Below are positions 5,320-15,221 of a stretch of DNA of 42,288 bases, in pieces. The notes beneath the pieces are model-generated. The model made no database searches. It was not told the origin of the DNA and saw only the letters and a list, made by a program, of their open reading frames with translations. Each line of letters begins with the position of its first letter. Positions within the stretch are counted from its first letter, which is position 1. The translations under genes and the position numbers were made by a program. Origin of the DNA: a virus; UHGV virus genome UHGV-1358694; one strand, given 5' to 3'.

Positions 5320-6587
5320 TAGTTAAAGCGATGTGCACGCAGAAGGTGTGGAACCGACTGCGTGCACAGATACCCAAGTCCATGCTCGCGCCGGATACAT
5401 CTAACCTACTAGACTGGGTGGGGCTGTACTGGAACACGTACCCGGAGCACCATGAGGTGCAGTGGGACGCGATGCAGAGCATGCTCAATCTCCGGGCGGG
5501 GCACCTATCCAGGGAAGAGCGGGTAATCATGGACGAGCTTATGCGGGGAGTACAAGCCGTACCGCAGGATTCTGTGGTGGGTATTGTCCAGACCCTGAAT
5601 GAGCTGGCCTACAGCGGGGAGGTAGCAGCGCTGACACAGCGCTACCAAGACGGCGAGGAGATTGATTACCTGCTGGAGATGAAGCACCTGCAGCGCAAGT
5701 ACGGCGACGGCGCTGCAGTGCACGAGTCGCTGCTTGAATGGGAGAGCGGTAGTGTTGACGAAATACTTGCCGCGACTGACGAGAGCGGTGGTCTTAAACT
5801 GGGCGTGTTCGAGCAGCTCGCTAGCAACATCCGAGGTCTACGCGGCGGGGACTGCATCGCAGTGGCCGCCCCTGTGGACTCTGGTAAAACTAGTCTGCTT
5901 GCTGCTATTGCTGTGGACTTTGCTGAGCAGATGCAGCAGCAGCCGGAAGTATACGGGGACCGCCCGATTCTCTGGCTGGTTAACGAGGGTCCGGCGACGC
6001 GTACAGTGCCGAGGGTATATCAAGCGGCGCTGCACTGGACTCTGGCTGAGATTAAGGACCGGCACAGTAAGCAAGAGTTCGTGCCAGCCTACCTCAAGAA
6101 AGTAGGCAGGGCTGACCGGATTCGTGTTAAGGCTGCGCACTCCTTGACGATGGCCCAGATATCCACGCTCATGGAGGAGATGCGCCCCGCGGTAATCATC
6201 ATCGACATGGTGGCGAACATCCGCGGCGGCACTATGGAGACCGAGCACCAGAACCTCGAAGCGAAATGGCAGGAGCTGCGCATACTTGGGTGCGAGAACG
6301 ACTGCGCTATTGTAGGCACTATGCAGCTTTCACTCGAAGGTTACAACATGTTGTTCCCGCCGCTCACCGCTATGAAGCAGAGCAAAATTGGTGTACAGGG
6401 TGCCTTGGACTTAGCTATTATGATGGGGTGTTTGGACAGAAACGAGCAGCCGCACATGCAAAACGTCCGCGGTATCAGTACTCCGAAGAACAAGATGGCA
6501 CTGTCTGGTAAAGAATCGCTCCTGCAATTCGAGGTAGGATTCGAGCCTGGACGTTGCCGCTTTGACGAAGGCCAGATTAACCGGTGA
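5307..6587 (+). CDS. DnaB/T7 gp4-type replicative DNA helicase (426 aa)
   Basis: Walker A AAPVDSGKTSLLAAIAV and Walker B-like VIIIDMV. The proposed TTG start has GGAAGGGGG 6 nt upstream. An internal ATG at 5331 is an alternative start. Confidence 0.85.
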   Translation: MDLIVVKAMCTQKVWNRLRAQIPKSMLAPDTSNLLDWVGLYWNTYPEHHEVQWDAMQSMLNLRAGHLSREERVIMDELMRGVQAVPQDSVVGIVQTLNELAYSGEVAALTQRYQDGEEIDYLLEMKHLQRKYGDGAAVHESLLEWESGSVDEILAATDESGGLKLGVFEQLASNIRGLRGGDCIAVAAPVDSGKTSLLAAIAVDFAEQMQQQPEVYGDRPILWLVNEGPATRTVPRVYQAALHWTLAEIKDRHSKQEFVPAYLKKVGRADRIRVKAAHSLTMAQISTLMEEMRPAVIIIDMVANIRGGTMETEHQNLEAKWQELRILGCENDCAIVGTMQLSLEGYNMLFPPLTAMKQSKIGVQGALDLAIMMGCLDRNEQPHMQNVRGISTPKNKMALSGKESLLQFEVGFEPGRCRFDEGQINR

Positions 6588-6637
6588 CTTCCCTAGCGCC
6601 TTCTACGAGGGCGCTATGTAGGTACACAGGAGGACTT

Positions 6638-6862
6638 ATGCAAGTAGACTACACAGGGGTTATCCAAAAAGTGGATTACACAGGAATTAGACGCGGCAGT
6701 TATGTGGTGCGCCACCGCATTACTGGAGAGTTCTGTACTGTGGAACTCGGAGCACGCTACAATCAGAGGGAGTGGGAGATTGTGGGATCAATATTGCTAC
6801 TGGGAGATTTACTTATATGCTTAAACCAGAAGATATCACAACGGACGACGCCAAGGTTATAG
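6638..6862 (+). CDS. hypothetical protein (74 aa)
   Basis: The ATG has AGGAGG 4-5 nt upstream. The track ORF starting at the GTG at 6584 is less likely. It overlaps the next candidate gene. Confidence 0.4.
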   Translation: MQVDYTGVIQKVDYTGIRRGSYVVRHRITGEFCTVELGARYNQREWEIVGSILLLGDLLICLNQKISQRTTPRL

Positions 6863-6972
6863 TGGCGTATGCTGCATCTGCAGGTACACCACTTAAAAGC
6901 TTCACGCTGGACAGCAGCCAGCTGATTGTGCATCTGGCTATCAATAAGGCTCGGAGGGCTGAGTGGAAATGA
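6817..6972 (+). CDS. hypothetical protein (51 aa; alternative GTG start at 6772)
   Basis: GGGAG 10 nt upstream of the ATG. Overlaps ORF 6638-6862 in another frame, so one of the two may be spurious. Confidence 0.35.
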   Translation: MLKPEDITTDDAKVIVAYAASAGTPLKSFTLDSSQLIVHLAINKARRAEWK

Positions 6973-7118
6973 GTATAAAAACCAAGTACAGGCCAAGTGG
7001 TCATGTGGACTTGCGCAGGCTTCGACGCTGTGCCCGCAGATTGCAGGGCGCTTGCCGGGACATAGGCATTGGCCGGGAGCGCTGGATCTATAAAGCAACC
7101 AGGAGATTCGGAAAGTGA
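6969..7118 (+). CDS. small basic protein (49 aa)
   Basis: ATGA overlap with the upstream stop. GGAGGG upstream. Rich in Arg/Lys. Confidence 0.4.
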   Translation: MSIKTKYRPSGHVDLRRLRRCARRLQGACRDIGIGRERWIYKATRRFGK

Positions 7119-7129
7119 CAACCAGTATA

Positions 7130-7582
7130 ATGCACATCGACCTGGAGATGGGCGGATGTGTAGACCATGGTAGAGTCAGAAGTCTGACCAAGTAAGGGTA
7201 TGCATTAGTAAAACACCCATATAAAAAGAGCAGGTGTGTCGCTTTACACAGACTGGTTCTGGCAAAGAAGTTGCGGTTATCCCTCGACTGCTTGAGCGGC
7301 GTGGTGGTGCGGCATACGTGCGATAACACTAGGTGCATAAATCCGGACCACTTAATCTCCGGTACCCGCGCAGATAATAACAGGGACAGAGCAGAACGCA
7401 ATCGCAGTGCCAAGTGTGTGCCGAGTAGACAGCGCCTGTCATTAGAGGATTGTAAGGAAATACAGAGTCGCCATAAACCCAGAGTTTGTGGAGGCACGCA
7501 CCTTGCCAAAGAGTATGGGGTAGACTCCAAGGTGATATATAGAGTTCTTAGAGGAGAGTATCCTTGTCAACTACCAGTATAA
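7130..7582 (+). pseudogene. HNH homing endonuclease interrupted by an in-frame TAA at 7193-7195; the first six codons (MHIDLE) duplicate the DNA polymerase start
   Basis: Same-frame reading gives MHIDLEMGGCVDHGRVRSLTK*GYALVKHPYKKSRCVALHRLVLAKKL...VVVRHTCDNTRCINPDHL. This is collinear with the intact paralogue at 14368 (CIDHG..GYA..HRVV..CNNPRCINPEHL). The first usable start after the TAA (TTG at 7271) would truncate the conserved HRLV N-terminus of the domain. Confidence 0.65.
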
Positions 7583-9939
7583 TGCACATAGATTTAGAGG
7601 TCGAGAACCATGAATATTACGGCTCTAAAGCAAGCCCATACTGTCCGGATAACTACGTTGTGGAGTCAGCGTGGCGAATTGATACAACGCAGGCAGATGG
7701 AACAACAACGGTTGGTAGCACTCAGTCAGTTCGCTATGCTAACAGGGCGGAGTTCTTGGCAGGAAGCAGTGCAGGTGCTGAGAGAAGCTGGTTTGTTATC
7801 CCAGAAGACTGTTGGCTAATAGTAGCACACAACGCTGCCTACGAAATCTCCTGGTTCCTAACGTACCAGCGTCAGAAGTTTGAAGCCTTCCTCAAGCGCG
7901 GAGGCAGGGTGTTCTGCACAATGCACGGGGAATACATAGCTTCGGACTTTCAGAGCATGTATCCGTCACTGGACGAGACAGCTCCTAAGTACGGCGGTAC
8001 GCACAAAGTAGACGGGGTTAAGATTCTCTGGGAGCAGGGTGTGTTAACCTCCCAGATTGACCCGATGCTGCTGCATGACTACCTGGTTAACGGGGACATC
8101 CCGAACACGGCCCTGTGCTTCTATGGCCAGTGCGCTACGTTCGCCCAGCGCGGGCAGATGCAGTACGTGTGGGAGCGTATGGACGCTCTGCTGGCTTGGG
8201 CGTACTGCGAGTGGTTCGGCCTGTTCGTGAATATGCCAATTGCGCGCAAGAACCAGGAGGAGCAGGAGCAGCGCATCCGTGAGATTAAGCAGGAGCTGCA
8301 ACAGTACATCCCGAAGGACTTGCCGGAGACGCTGGATTTCAACTTCGGGTCGGACTTTCATATGTCTGCGCTGGTGTATGGTGGACCTATCAAGTACCGC
8401 AAGAAGGTACCCTATGACCCTCCGCAGTACGTCAAGGCCGACTACTGGCAAGTCGGGGACACTTGGGTTGCCGTGGATGACATGCCCGCACCGCCAGGTG
8501 CGACCACGTACAAGTCCGGTAAGAACAAGGGACTACCCAAAGTATTCCGCCTTGATACCGAGGAGGAGAAGCTCAAGTGGGAGGACGACCTTTACTTCTG
8601 CCCGGGACTGGTGAACATACAGGAGCTGCCGGAAGTTATCCGGGAGAAGTATGCGGAGCGTGGAGAGTTCCGACAGGCGCGCACCATGCAGGACGGTACG
8701 CCAGTATACAGCACCAGCACAGACGCAATGGAGGCGCTGGCCCGCCAAGGGTTCGAGTTCTGTAAGTTGGTGAATGAGCTGGCGGCGCTTGAGAAGGACA
8801 CCGGTACCTACTATTTACGGGAAGTTCTGGATGCAAACGGAGAAGTCAAAGAGCGGAAGGGAATGCTGCAGTACGTAATCCCCGAACGCCCAGATGGTTC
8901 CGGTATCATACACCACCGGCTGAATACTTGTGCCACTGTAACCGGGCGCCTGAGTAGCTCTAATCCGAACCTGCAGAACCTGCCCCGCCCGGATGAGGAC
9001 GGTGATGGGGTAGCTAAATCCAAGGTGAAGCAGGTGTTCACCAGTAGATTCGGGGACAACGGGCGTATCACTGAGGTTGACTACTCGGCACTGGAAGTGG
9101 TTATGTCCTGTGTACACACGGGTGACAAGAAACTGCTGGGGCTGCTGCAGAGTGGTACGGATATGCACTGCTACCGCCTAGCTTTCCGTGAAGGATTGGA
9201 TTACGACGAGGTGTACTACCGCTGTCACGATAAGACTTACCAAGACTATAGTACGTGGAAGACAAAGCGTTCGCATATCAAGACCCCTAGCTTTGCTGCG
9301 CAGTATGGGGCTTCCGCAAGGGGTGTAGCCTTCGCCGCGGGTTGTACAGTGGAATTCGCACAAGAGTTCCTAGATAACGAAGCGCGTATGTTCCCAACAA
9401 CCATCGGCTTCCGCGCTGTTGTCAAGGAAGAGGTGGAGCGTAACGGTGCGGAGGGTCGCATGTACCGGGAGCAAGCTGACGACGGCAGCTACCGAATCTA
9501 CCGCATTGGGACGTGGACCAGCCCTGCTGGTGCCCGATACAGCTTCCGTCAGAAAGAGCAGTGGAAAGAGGTTGTGCCCGGGCAGCGTAAGCAGAAGGTA
9601 ATGGACTACAAGGAAACTGAGATGGCGAACTACTGGTGCCAGGGGGAAGCGTTCTTCCTGATGGCGGTGGCGGCTGGTATGGTTCTGCGTGCACTCTTGG
9701 CCCGTGACTGGTTCGACAATCAGGTGTGCCTGATTACGAACGTACACGATGCATTGTATCTGGACAGCGCCAACCCTGAGGTTGGACGTGAGGCGAGCCT
9801 GCTGGTTAAGCAGTGCATGGAGGATGCGCCTAAGCGTATCCATCAGCTCTGGCCTAACTACGGTATCATTGGCGAGGTCCCGTTCCCAGCAGAGGCTGAG
9901 ATGGGTACGAGTATGTACAGTAAGGAGAAGGTAGAATGA
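7582..9939 (+). CDS. family A (T7-like) DNA polymerase with N-terminal 3'-5' exonuclease (786 aa)
   Basis: N-terminal MHIDLEVEN matches the Exo I D-x-E motif of T7 gp5 (MIVSDIEAN). The polymerase domain has RQ/K..YG motifs and a C-terminal VHDA.. motif. The track ORF 7564 extends upstream only through a TTG. The ATG at 7582 overlaps the HNH stop as TAATG. Confidence 0.9.
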   Translation: MHIDLEVENHEYYGSKASPYCPDNYVVESAWRIDTTQADGTTTVGSTQSVRYANRAEFLAGSSAGAERSWFVIPEDCWLIVAHNAAYEISWFLTYQRQKFEAFLKRGGRVFCTMHGEYIASDFQSMYPSLDETAPKYGGTHKVDGVKILWEQGVLTSQIDPMLLHDYLVNGDIPNTALCFYGQCATFAQRGQMQYVWERMDALLAWAYCEWFGLFVNMPIARKNQEEQEQRIREIKQELQQYIPKDLPETLDFNFGSDFHMSALVYGGPIKYRKKVPYDPPQYVKADYWQVGDTWVAVDDMPAPPGATTYKSGKNKGLPKVFRLDTEEEKLKWEDDLYFCPGLVNIQELPEVIREKYAERGEFRQARTMQDGTPVYSTSTDAMEALARQGFEFCKLVNELAALEKDTGTYYLREVLDANGEVKERKGMLQYVIPERPDGSGIIHHRLNTCATVTGRLSSSNPNLQNLPRPDEDGDGVAKSKVKQVFTSRFGDNGRITEVDYSALEVVMSCVHTGDKKLLGLLQSGTDMHCYRLAFREGLDYDEVYYRCHDKTYQDYSTWKTKRSHIKTPSFAAQYGASARGVAFAAGCTVEFAQEFLDNEARMFPTTIGFRAVVKEEVERNGAEGRMYREQADDGSYRIYRIGTWTSPAGARYSFRQKEQWKEVVPGQRKQKVMDYKETEMANYWCQGEAFFLMAVAAGMVLRALLARDWFDNQVCLITNVHDALYLDSANPEVGREASLLVKQCMEDAPKRIHQLWPNYGIIGEVPFPAEAEMGTSMYSKEKVE

Positions 9940-13090: not shown

Positions 13091-13249
13091 ATGCTGTACG
13101 TATCTCGCGCAATTTACGTAGCTTTGATTCTCCCGCTGATTCCCTTGGCGGGGCTGTGTTACCTGGGCGACAAGCTCAGCAAGGCAAAGTGGGCAGAGCG
13201 TTGGGTTAACTGGGCCGACAAGAAGGCCCGTGATATTACGGGGCGCTAA
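13091..13249 (+). CDS. small membrane protein (52 aa), absent from the ORF track
   Basis: GGAGG 7 nt upstream. TM segment AIYVALILPLIPLAGLCYL. TAATG overlap with the next start. Confidence 0.4.
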   Translation: MLYVSRAIYVALILPLIPLAGLCYLGDKLSKAKWAERWVNWADKKARDITGR

Positions 13250-14217
13250 TGATTATCAACGGGGTTGACTTGTCCCAGCTCGGGGAGCAGTTAGCTCCAC
13301 AGAACTCTGGGAAGATTCTGCTGTATGACGCGGATTTCACAGTTTATAAATCTGCCGCTACAGTGAAACGTTTGGACACTGCAATCCGCCGCTTCTATCA
13401 GCTACTGCTTGAGGACATGTTCCTGGTCGGCTGCTCAGAAGCAGTGGCGTATCTGACGCCTACGGGGTGTGCTAAGTGCCTGCGCTGGCACCTACCTACG
13501 GCTAAGCCCTACCAGGGGCAGCGCGCTAATCGACAGGAGCTACCTCTCAAGGCGCCGTTGAAGCGGCACCTGATTGAGAATCCCGACCAGTATTCTGAGC
13601 AGGGTATTCAGGTAGTCAGCAGTGACTACTTCGAGGCCGACGACCTGTTCGTGATGGACTCATACGCCTTCGGGGACCGGGGAATCCTGATGTCCCAGGA
13701 CAAGGATTCCTGGCTAAGCCCTATGGCCCGGTTCGATATTCCGACCGGAACCGTGTGGCCTGCCTTGGATAACCCCTTCGGCTGGATTAAGTGGGATGAT
13801 ACCCAGGCTATGCCGGTGCGTGCACACGGCACTAAGTTCTTCTGGTGGCAAATGCTAGCAGGGGATGACGCAGATAACGTCAAAGGCATCACATTGCTTG
13901 ATGGGAAGCTCTGTGGGAAGCGAACGGCCTTTGATGCTATCTACCCTATTACCTCAGAGCAGGACGCCGCAGAATTCGTTGTAGCGGCCTATGCTCGAAA
14001 CAACCAAGACGTACTCGCAGAGGCTGAATGCCTGTGGCTGAGGCGCTCCCAATCAGATTCAGCGTACCTGTATCTGATGTCACTGTTGACTACTCCCAGT
14101 ATGCGTGACTGGGTGCATTCGCTGCACGAGTACCATAAACAGCATATACAGTGGATACAGGAGCACCCAGACAATGGCGAAGATGTCTGCGAAGGAAATG
14201 AGCCTGCGGGCGATTGA
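13249..14217 (+). CDS. 5'-3' exonuclease / flap endonuclease (T7 gene 6-like)
   Basis: ILLYDADFTVYKS (cf. T7 gp6 DGDWLVF), FEADDLFV and GDDADNVKGI (FEN-family GDxxDN) motifs. Confidence 0.7.
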   Translation: MIINGVDLSQLGEQLAPQNSGKILLYDADFTVYKSAATVKRLDTAIRRFYQLLLEDMFLVGCSEAVAYLTPTGCAKCLRWHLPTAKPYQGQRANRQELPLKAPLKRHLIENPDQYSEQGIQVVSSDYFEADDLFVMDSYAFGDRGILMSQDKDSWLSPMARFDIPTGTVWPALDNPFGWIKWDDTQAMPVRAHGTKFFWWQMLAGDDADNVKGITLLDGKLCGKRTAFDAIYPITSEQDAAEFVVAAYARNNQDVLAEAECLWLRRSQSDSAYLYLMSLLTTPSMRDWVHSLHEYHKQHIQWIQEHPDNGEDVCEGNEPAGD

Positions 14218-14377
14218 GTTATACTATGAGGGGAAACATGATGAACTTGAAACTATTCTGGATGCGCTGCGTGAACGAGCACCCAAAACACATCGAAGAA
14301 CGGTTGAGCATTTGGATTCTCTCATTCACGACAATGCTATGCTGGATGTAGTGGGGGAGATTCAGGTATGGGAGTGA
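14174..14377 (+). CDS. small hypothetical protein (67 aa; start uncertain)
   Basis: Internal ATG with AGGAG 10 nt upstream. Overlaps the exonuclease 3' end by 44 nt and the HNH start by 10 nt. Confidence 0.35.
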   Translation: MAKMSAKEMSLRAIELYYEGKHDELETILDALRERAPKTHRRTVEHLDSLIHDNAMLDVVGEIQVWE

Positions 14378-14817
14378 GCACACCTTGTATAGACCACGGT
14401 TGCAAGGGTATGGGTCTAGGTTACGCCACTGCTTGGTTTCGGGTGGACGGGGTGCGGAAGAGCACCACCAAGCACCGGGTTGTGTTTTACGACACGTATG
14501 GATACATGCCCGACGTTGTGGAACACTTGTGCAATAATCCCCGCTGCATAAATCCGGAGCACCTAAGAGCGGGGACGCACAAAACAAACTCGGCTTATAA
14601 GTATAAGTGTGGGCGCGGGAACAATAAGGCTATGGCACTGCGCGGTACCAAGAACGGCAGGGCCAAGCTAAACGACGACACAGTACGTTATCTTAGGCAG
14701 ATGCACATACCACAGGACCGAGAGTGGGGCGCATCCGCCATCGCCAAGCGGTTAAATATGGGTGTGGCTAGCACTTATAGAATGTTAGTGGGGGAGTCAT
14801 GGCGACACGTAAAATAA
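14368..14817 (+). CDS. HNH homing endonuclease (149 aa), intact paralogue of the pseudogene at 7130
   Basis: CIDHGCKG...GYATAW...HRVVF...VEHLCNNPRCINPEHLRAGTHKTN followed by a helix-turn-helix-like C-terminus. GGAG 8 nt upstream. Confidence 0.8.
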   Translation: MGVSTPCIDHGCKGMGLGYATAWFRVDGVRKSTTKHRVVFYDTYGYMPDVVEHLCNNPRCINPEHLRAGTHKTNSAYKYKCGRGNNKAMALRGTKNGRAKLNDDTVRYLRQMHIPQDREWGASAIAKRLNMGVASTYRMLVGESWRHVK

Positions 14818-15221
14818 CCCGGGCACAAATTCGCTCTGTAGCTATGAAGCTCGCCAAGGACCAGGGGGGCGTATGCCCCCTATGCGGTAAACCACTAGAT
14901 TTTACAATCAAGGGAGTAACAGGTGATTCTGTAGTAGTCGACCATTGCCACCTCACTGGCCGTATTAGAGGTGCACTTCACCGTTCATGTAACGGCGGAG
15001 AAGGCAAAGTGGCATCTGCCGCTGGGCGCTGGATTGTTGGTAGCATGCAATCTTCTGGGGCTATTGCTGAATCTCTACGTAGGGTCGCCGATTACTTAGA
15101 CCGTGAACCCACGGATATGCTATACTATACGCACAAGACACCGGAAGAATTAGCACAGGCACAGAAGCTCAAGGCCCGCAAAGCCAGAGCACGACGCAAA
15201 GCACGGGAGACTATTAAGTGA
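14799..15221 (+). CDS. endonuclease VII-like Holliday-junction resolvase (T4 gp49-like HNH/Zn fold, 140 aa)
   Basis: GGVCPLCGKPL...VVDHCHLTGRIRGALHRSCNGGEGK parallels T4 endo VII GKCLIC...DHDH..G..VRGLLC..CN..EG. Confidence 0.65.
   Translation: MATRKITRAQIRSVAMKLAKDQGGVCPLCGKPLDFTIKGVTGDSVVVDHCHLTGRIRGALHRSCNGGEGKVASAAGRWIVGSMQSSGAIAESLRRVADYLDREPTDMLYYTHKTPEELAQAQKLKARKARARRKARETIK

Follow-up and report, generated by a model that had tools for sequence, protein, structure and literature searches.

The virus genome UHGV-1358694, analysed here over its whole length of 42,288 nucleotides (the window, in what follows), is that of a Drulisvirus, a KP34-like Klebsiella podophage of the Autographiviridae/Slopekvirinae with ~92% identity to KpV41, SU552A, and phiKpS2. 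Its sequence goes back to a single JGI metagenome contig (3300045988, Ga0495776_002480), which is identical to the window. Directly 5′ of the family-A DNA polymerase gene lies an HNH endonuclease gene that is fused in frame to a duplicate of the first polymerase codons and interrupted by a nonsense codon. All features of this locus are on the plus strand. They comprise a polymerase 5′ stub (7115–7147; GTG plus 10 codons, translated MTTSIMHIDLE); the HNH coding region (7148–7582, 145 codons), which is in frame with the stub, is of the His-Me finger type (HNH_3/phrog_6254), and has a helix-rich C-terminal domain; a TAA within it (7193–7195); a repeat of the polymerase 5′ end that is the functional copy (7564–7599) and whose first six codons share their nucleotides, in another frame, with the HNH C-terminus; and the polymerase gene itself (7564–9939), which encodes 791 residues from TTG 7564 or 785 from ATG 7582. 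The HNH stop codon (TAA, 7580–7582) overlaps this ATG. In agreement with a preliminary description made from the letters alone, the polymerase is intact: its open reading frame (ORF) matches DNA_pol_A (PF00476, E 4e-29), and the exact 785-residue product is on record in JGI.

The preliminary description had also proposed that the 5′ end of the polymerase is duplicated upstream and that the HNH gene lies between the two copies, in frame with the upstream one, and both points were borne out. The 27-mers at 7121–7147 and 7573–7599 are the sole matches of this kind in the window (expectation from 100 shuffles, 0); the coordinates first given for the upstream copy stand, whereas the downstream copy had been extended to 7600, one base too far. 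They agree at 23 of 27 positions, and none of the four mismatches alters the encoded polymerase residues (ATC/ATA, GAC/GAT, CTG/TTA). Read in the polymerase frame, the repeat exceeds 27 nucleotides: the upstream copy (7115–7147) reads GTG ACA ACC AGT ATA ATG CAC ATC GAC CTG GAG and the downstream copy (7564–7599) TTG TCA ACT ACC AGT ATA ATG CAC ATA GAT TTA GAG, with TTSIMHIDLE in common and 25 of 30 nucleotides matching. A comparison with relatives that have no HNH gene, as first suggested, was run with RCIP0036 and CX1 as references for the uninterrupted site. In both genomes the repeat sequence occurs once only, as the annotated polymerase start, (A/G)TG ACA ACC AGT ATA ATG CAC..., which shares (A/G)TGA with the stop codon of the preceding gene. 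The upstream copy in the window therefore corresponds to the native initiation region of the polymerase.

The signals around the two copies fit with this assignment. The gene preceding the stub is a 51-residue ORF of unknown function (6963–7118; a CX1_20 homologue with no Pfam match), whose stop TGA (7116–7118) overlaps the start GTG of the stub (7115–7117). A GGAG Shine-Dalgarno sequence (7102–7105) lies 9 nucleotides 5′ of this GTG, in the same arrangement as before the annotated polymerase start of CX1; judged by its sequence and position, it is the putative native polymerase initiation signal, now presumably driving the stub::HNH fusion. The upstream 27-mer had been thought to supply both the ribosome-binding site and the ATG of the HNH gene; the in-frame fusion holds, whereas the GGAG lies outside the 27-mer and serves GTG 7115, not ATG 7130. 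In Putnam, a stub-bearing relative, GTT replaces the ATG found at 7148 in the window, and the stub start must therefore be the one used for the HNH gene. The polymerase has its own start signals, as a second GGAG (7553–7556), within the 3′ end of the HNH gene, lies 7 nucleotides before TTG 7564 and would act as a replacement ribosome-binding site. The sequence around it, agaggagagtaYccttgtcaac, is conserved in all HNH-bearing relatives, and phage Kpn13 has the same GGAG 7 nucleotides ahead of its polymerase ATG. Across records the polymerase start is annotated variably, at TTG or ATG. A scan of 6500–8000 for promoter and terminator consensus sequences gave nothing beyond shuffle expectation.

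The stub runs through a D-L-E that we call Exo I-like. This tentative assignment is based on the invariant N-terminal D-x-E-[TV] of about ten divergent polymerases and on general knowledge of family-A polymerases; the N-terminal 279 residues of the polymerase had no match in a solved-structure search.

Profile tests of the HNH region were carried out with the TAA read as Glu. It scored 25.4 bits with HNH_3 (PF13392; cut-off 24.8) and 26.1 with zf-His_Me_endon, just under the cut-off of 27, and matched phrog_6254 over residues 8–144 (E 4.5e-23). All family-invariant residues are encoded in 7148–7582, with the motif C-x-D-H-G ... R-H-x-C-D-N-x-R-C ... H ... N-N and the family-invariant RHxCDN...C.NP.H; the invariant C, D, H, G, S, and L precede the TAA and the remaining ones follow it. 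An AlphaFold model of an intact relative (P0001, the representative of a 26-sequence cluster) has a predicted local distance difference test (pLDDT) score of 77, with strands at 66–69 and 82–85 followed by a helix at 87–96 and a well-predicted C-terminal helical domain; stub residues 1–14 score below 50, and most rows of the alignment lack a stub. Foldseek matched the C-terminal part to helix-turn-helix domains, locally and non-significantly. The HNH fold search returned no significant global match, and the HNH profile had no match among PDB sequences. By its sequence, the inserted gene is best described as a free-standing gene of the HNH homing-endonuclease type in a slot 5′ of a family-A polymerase. 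A literature search found no publication on this HNH family, nor on this layout in Drulisvirus or phiKMV-like phages.

The window holds a second HNH_3/phrog_6254-type gene, which is intact and 149 residues long (14368–14817). It aligns with the gene at 7148–7582 in the way first described, but it had been taken for a paralogue, and with only 30% identity it is a distant member of the family rather than a recent copy. It sits between a 5′–3′ exonuclease-like ORF (13249–14217) and an endonuclease VII-like ORF (14799–15221). Its exact sequence is found on 35 contigs and belongs to a 25-member cluster that includes the annotated HNH endonucleases of VLC1, BUCT86, and VLCpiA1m.

The frame at 7130–7582 translates as MHIDLEMGGCVDHGRVRSLTK*GYALV...CQLPV*, with the TAA at 7193–7195 as originally reported; the HNH reading frame is thus interrupted in the window. 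The stub-bearing relatives used for comparison, BUCT-H1, Putnam, and the Logan contig L039, share the layout of the window at 91–93% nucleotide identity and have GAA at this codon; P0001, whose 26 sequences are full length, has Glu, and the Putnam copy is annotated as a 150-residue HNH endonuclease. The TAA thus appears to be a derived, window-specific nonsense mutation, caused by one G>T change in the Glu codon 22 counted from ATG 7130. The ratio of non-synonymous to synonymous polymorphism (pN/pS) is 0.12–0.15 among three intact or near-intact phage copies, which argues that the gene was under selection until recently and that its loss is recent. Changes specific to the window number 16 synonymous and seven non-synonymous (E22*, D31Y, P77S, R96C, N113S, V122G, L149P). 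The next canonical in-frame start after the TAA is TTG 7271, and a product begun there would be without nine family-invariant residues (C, D, H, G, S, L, G, Y, H); barring assembly error, the endonuclease should therefore be dead in this genome. An exact look-up of the four possible truncated products found none, and pattern scans for the TAA allele in metagenome and viral contigs gave 0 matches, in scans that did not recover the source contig itself. In a contig search, the only contig with the polymerase of the window was the window's own.

Decay at the polymerase start has a precedent in Kpn13 (OQ790081, ~550–971), where a third HNH variant carries a 1-nucleotide deletion and reads GYALVGKLV* and then, in another frame, GVSSRC.... 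The Kpn13 record annotates only the C-terminal part of this broken gene, and its polymerase start reads ATTGACCTGGAG, like the stub of the window. The view of a captured endonuclease already in decay thus holds as far as decay is concerned (the derived TAA and the Kpn13 frameshift), whereas the duplication was not made in this genome but inherited in its lineage.

The HNH gene has a patchy distribution. It was found in 11 of 241 related phage records (~5%), the others having a single polymerase start, so that close relatives are polymorphic for its presence at one site, with RCIP0036 and CX1 uninterrupted. Recombination junctions flank the gene, and its two flanks resemble different HNH-less phages. 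On the right, polymerase nucleotides 1–27 carry a marker, GTCGAGAAC, that is common to BUCT-H1 and Putnam, whereas from nucleotide 63 on the polymerase is 99–100% identical to that of the HNH-less RCIP0036; over nucleotides 100–300, BUCT-H1 and Putnam are only 66–78% identical. This marker switch places the right junction in 7609–7643. On the left, CX1 aligns continuously with window positions 6400–7151 at 89% identity, whereas the alignments of BUCT-H1, Putnam, and L039 begin at ~7107–7110, and their upstream genes differ. The left junction therefore falls in 7110–7141, where homology to the other stub-bearing phages begins and that to CX1 runs through, and the two junctions together delimit a transferred unit of ~0.5 kb. 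In the four stub-bearing genomes, three upstream contexts abut the stub exactly at its start codon, L039 having the context of BUCT-H1. The stretch between helicase and polymerase (window 6772–7118 and its counterparts) is hypervariable among Drulisvirus and consists of differing small ORFs of unknown function, chained by ATGA/GTGA stop–start overlaps.

The same slot can hold other endonucleases. KP34 (GQ413938, 9812–10282) has an unrelated AP2-type HNH gene there (PHA00280-like, 156 residues), with a TAATG overlap with the polymerase start, which makes the junction just 5′ of the polymerase a hotspot for at least two endonuclease families. In a stub-bearing Logan contig (ERR3696557_433, 1956–3474), the polymerase ORF ends after ~376 residues (equivalent to window residue 393, ...STSTDAM) and is followed directly by an AP2-type HNH ORF, which looks like a second endonuclease insertion splitting the polymerase gene.

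To place the fusion in a wider context, we used 99 homologues at E<=1e-20, treated as clusters. In an additional search over 1.84 billion representatives, the family collapsed to a few 50%-identity clusters, of which P0117 and P0121 were added as stub-bearing; a profile-based metagenome scan returned mostly distant HNH_3 genes in other contexts and the polymerase-adjacent family at only six loci. The same HNH family lies directly 5′ of, and overlaps, the polymerase start in Vibrio phage VP93 as well as in some eight divergent contigs from IMG/VR and metagenomes, and it also occupies the slot in a contig matching the HNH of Pectobacterium phage PP90 and in many uncultured podophage contigs. In all the polymerases downstream of these genes, a short leader at the N-terminus precedes D-[LIY]-E-[TV]. 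Most members of the family start 2–4 residues ahead of the invariant Cys (MSEC..., MDC...). However, 11 of the 99 cluster representatives start with a polymerase-like N-terminus, as do P0117 and P0121.

These fusions fall into at least eight junction types. In seven of them, 0–5 residues precede the invariant C-x-D-H-G (MTTSIMHIDLE|MGGC, MTTSIMHID|C, MSAIMHIDLE|PC, MRTRILDLE|C, MTIMIMDLE|LPC, MIRVLDLE|DTNASC, and MRIRVIDL|DC), and in the eighth MRVMIRDIE is followed by a 25-residue linker. The stub always corresponds to the first 8–11 polymerase codons and ends at the D-x-E in seven types; in P0012 and P0121 it ends at the Asp of that motif. On the polymerase side the junction is therefore constant, within one codon of the end of D-x-E, whereas on the HNH side it falls at varying distances (0–5 or 25 residues) before the invariant Cys. 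Seven types have a contig that extends into the polymerase codons, and in each of these the stub matches the N-terminus of the polymerase that follows on the same contig (stub/polymerase: MRTRILDLE/MRIRICDIE, MRVMIRDIE/MRIMIRDIE, MTIMIMDLE/MSIMICDLE, IRVLDLE/IRVMDLE, RIRVIDL/RIRVVDL); the contig of the remaining type (L036) stops at the polymerase start. The two copies are 448–520 nucleotides apart and share 50–83% nucleotide identity. In a neighbour-joining tree, stub-bearing forms are dispersed among stub-less ones. The layout is not unique to the window; it is inherited in the lineage formed by the window, BUCT-H1, Putnam, and L039, with analogous fusions elsewhere. P0002, P0012, P0041, P0056, and P0121 combine the same N-terminal nuclease part and stub junction with very different helix-rich C-terminal halves, presumably DNA-binding, which suggests domain shuffling within the HNH family. 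In one ENA contig (MUNK22-1 scaffold_118, ~2040–2140), a run of N directly after the polymerase 5′ copy is followed by a repeated NHPYLGAVASTHCPDNYIV coding stretch; its sister contig is clean, and the repeat is probably an assembly problem.

Taken together, we consider that the locus holds a homing-endonuclease gene that has become fused to a polymerase stub and has been inactivated in the window, an explanation to which we assign a probability of roughly 70%. The simplest reading of a constant polymerase-side and a variable HNH-side junction is that the break site lies just 3′ of the D-x-E codons. In the proposed mechanism, the endonuclease would cut HNH-free polymerase alleles at this position. 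With the same upstream gene in donor and recipient, ordinary double-strand-break repair would copy the HNH gene in its stub-less form. Where the upstream genes are non-homologous, the left break end, at the D-x-E, would instead be joined, over short or no homology, to the start of the endonuclease gene, and a stub would result; in-frame joins would be those that survive, because they supply translation. The joint of the window lineage shows such microhomology, between CTGGAGATG of the polymerase and ATGGAAATG of the stub-less HNH gene. The stub would provide the endonuclease with the ribosome-binding site and start codon of the polymerase, and it could at the same time serve as a left homology arm of ~30 nucleotides in the conserved target gene, so that both arms would then lie inside the polymerase gene and homing would be possible whatever gene lies upstream. 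The three upstream contexts and the confinement of the left crossover to ~25–30 nucleotides fit with a stub acting as an arm. The 3′ end of the element carries a replacement ribosome-binding site and start codon together with the same 11 codons; the polymerase thus stays whole, and in this lineage the element in effect lies within the polymerase reading frame. In the window, a cassette of ~0.5 kb would have entered, by recombination, a genome whose left flank resembled CX1 and whose polymerase resembled that of RCIP0036. The G>T change after this transfer, upon which the endonuclease would no longer be made, may represent the degeneration phase of the homing-endonuclease cycle. The polymerase, with start signals of its own, should be unaffected by this inactivation, and the direct repeats could permit precise loss of the element.

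Several observations weigh against this explanation or parts of it. The target and the cut site are read solely from the positions of the junctions. The HNH genes are themselves mosaic (P0002; P0041 versus P0056; P0012 versus P0121), which makes the number of independent stub origins uncertain, and the constant D-x-E boundary could be inherited rather than set by a cut. A search of the polymerase 5′ region for an immunity allele revealed no consistent difference between HNH-bearing and HNH-less phages that would account for protection of the resident copy from cleavage. The structural model of P0001 is of moderate quality, and its Foldseek match to I-PpoI is local and non-significant (26 columns, root mean square deviation 0.9, E about 3). 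The TAA allele rests on one metagenome assembly, and the window branch has no clear non-synonymous excess (7 versus 16), as expected of a very recent mutation or a base-call error.

The mosaic structure of the HNH genes is also the basis of the alternative that survives best, although we regard it as unlikely. The duplication may be unrelated to a cut site, going back to one ancestral event of unequal recombination or slippage that was spread by ordinary recombination and kept for its translation signals. Identical junctions are found on very different C-terminal halves (MTTSIMHID|CIDHG in P0012 and P0121; MRTRILDLE|CQDHG in P0041 and P0056), so junctions can move by recombination, and crossovers in phage mosaics usually lie at gene boundaries, according to one study (PMC10448857). 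However, a single event does not readily account for at least eight HNH-side junctions (0, 1, 2, 3, 5, or 25 residues) that share one D-x-E position, in phages with no more than ~50–60% identity in their polymerases and HNH genes. Moreover, each stub resembles the polymerase of its own genome and not the stubs of other lineages.

Somewhat less probable still is an artefact at the TAA, from sequencing, assembly consensus, or a minority variant, with the actual phage population carrying an intact, active endonuclease. The codon is known from one metagenome contig, with no independent copy found, while all other members of the lineage are intact, and the substitutions specific to the window show no clear relaxation of constraint. 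The change is also a single G>T, the type that arises from oxidative damage. On the other hand, consensus errors are rare in assembled contigs, decay of homing endonucleases is common, with the Kpn13 frameshift at the same locus as an example, and the window copy carries the radical, unique replacements D31Y, P77S, R96C, and V122G.

We think it improbable that the HNH gene is instead a domesticated phage function, for instance in replication-linked nicking or competitor exclusion, with the fusion serving regulation or interaction. It keeps its place beside the polymerase, and the translational overlap, in very divergent phages, and the intact copies are under purifying selection (see the pN/pS above); yet selfish endonucleases are also under purifying selection while spreading. 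Viable isolates make up the ~95% of close relatives that lack the gene; in KP34 an unrelated HNH gene takes its place, and it has been inactivated both in the window and in Kpn13. The low pLDDT of the stub likewise speaks against such a function, with the reservation that most alignment rows lack a stub.

A bypass of the stop codon by readthrough, reinitiation, or a two-piece enzyme, yielding an active endonuclease at low level as the preliminary description had allowed, is very improbable: the ORF is open to its normal end after the stop and the catalytic HxCDN...NPxH motif is intact, but the stop is not conserved, its context is TAA-G, at which enterobacteria terminate efficiently, neither ATG nor GTG occurs in frame before TTG 7271, which has no proper Shine-Dalgarno sequence and would yield the defective product described above, and no recoding RNA element was found by Rfam in 6500–8200.

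Four candidate readings were rejected. For an intron, Rfam matched no family in 6500–8200 at E<=1. For an intein or another element in frame on both sides, the HNH gene ends at its own stop in a frame different from that of the polymerase, which is complete downstream. For a transposon target-site duplication, the repeats, at 30–33 nucleotides, are not identical (5 of 30 positions mismatch in the window and up to 50% in other lineages), the protein of the element includes the translated upstream copy, and stub-less members share the same slot; that the copies differ at synonymous sites, and that the upstream GAC CTG is also present at the Kpn13 polymerase start, argues in the same direction. 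For programmed readthrough or recoding, the codon is a sense codon in the relatives (GAA in BUCT-H1, Putnam, and L039, Glu in P0001), and no RNA element was found.

Free-standing endonucleases of T4-like phages, such as SegF, SegG, and MobE, are known for "intronless homing" (PMC2790892, PMC2988022). Like them, the HNH gene of the window lies outside any intron or intein beside its presumed target gene, is patchy among close relatives, and has short co-transferred flanks and a mosaic boundary. The T4 elements lie between genes that have their own starts, whereas the HNH gene of the window is fused in frame to a duplicate of the first 8–11 codons of the neighbouring gene, for which it brings a replacement start region. 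HNH enzymes are also found in polymerase-gene introns of SPO1-like phages (I-TslI and I-HmuI). I-PfoP3I, another HNH endonuclease, is encoded in a group I intron of a podophage DNA polymerase gene (PMC3428280). The gene described here resembles these three in placing an enzyme of the HNH family at a conserved part of a phage family-A polymerase gene, and, like many intron ORFs, it is read in frame from upstream coding sequence. Unlike them, it has no Rfam intron match and needs no splicing, since a duplicated short 5′ segment keeps the gene whole. As in Aeh1, a free-standing HNH gene is inserted into conserved coding sequence with neither an intron nor an intein; however, the host gene of Aeh1 is split into two functional polypeptides, whereas that of the window is unsplit and the 11-codon fragment is redundant. 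For the combination of a duplicated gene end and an in-frame fusion, mitochondrial endonuclease ORFs are, by analogy, seemingly the nearest parallels: these homing-type ORFs are accompanied by a duplicate of one end of their target gene and are fused in frame with a resident coding sequence. They are organellar and of the LAGLIDADG or GIY-YIG type, mostly at 3′ ends or in introns, whereas the HNH gene is of phage origin and is found at the extreme 5′ end in many lineages.

An inactivated endonuclease gene beside a polymerase is one that annotation pipelines overlook or miscall. In the window, the JGI gene caller called nothing between a 51-residue ORF upstream of ORF 6963–7118 and the polymerase. 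In SAA231 (596–1036 of the extract analysed) the HNH ORF is intact and yet unannotated, and the record of BUCT-H1 is labelled UNVERIFIED and is featureless.

For the genome in the window alone, the result is a modest one, a recently inactivated selfish gene beside an intact polymerase. The pseudogene as such is ordinary; what is of interest is the recurrent stub fusion, together with the cut site and the homing into variable flanks that it implies. We tentatively propose, while placing the balance of probability somewhat against it, that such fusions are, next to introns and inteins, a third and repeatedly evolved means by which a homing endonuclease can reside inside an essential coding sequence. 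The element would insert about ten codons into the polymerase, after the D-x-E beside which it cuts, borrow the start of the gene and re-supply its codons, and gain a portable left arm, and the stub boundary would give away the cleavage site. The recurrent fusion yields a concrete and testable prediction of the cut position for an uncharacterised endonuclease family. It also suggests a route by which free-standing homing genes may enter coding sequence without an intron or intein, and how they may cope with non-homologous flanks. For the phages themselves, it flags the pair of direct repeats as able to delete the element precisely, and the polymerase start of therapeutic Klebsiella phages as a recombination hotspot.

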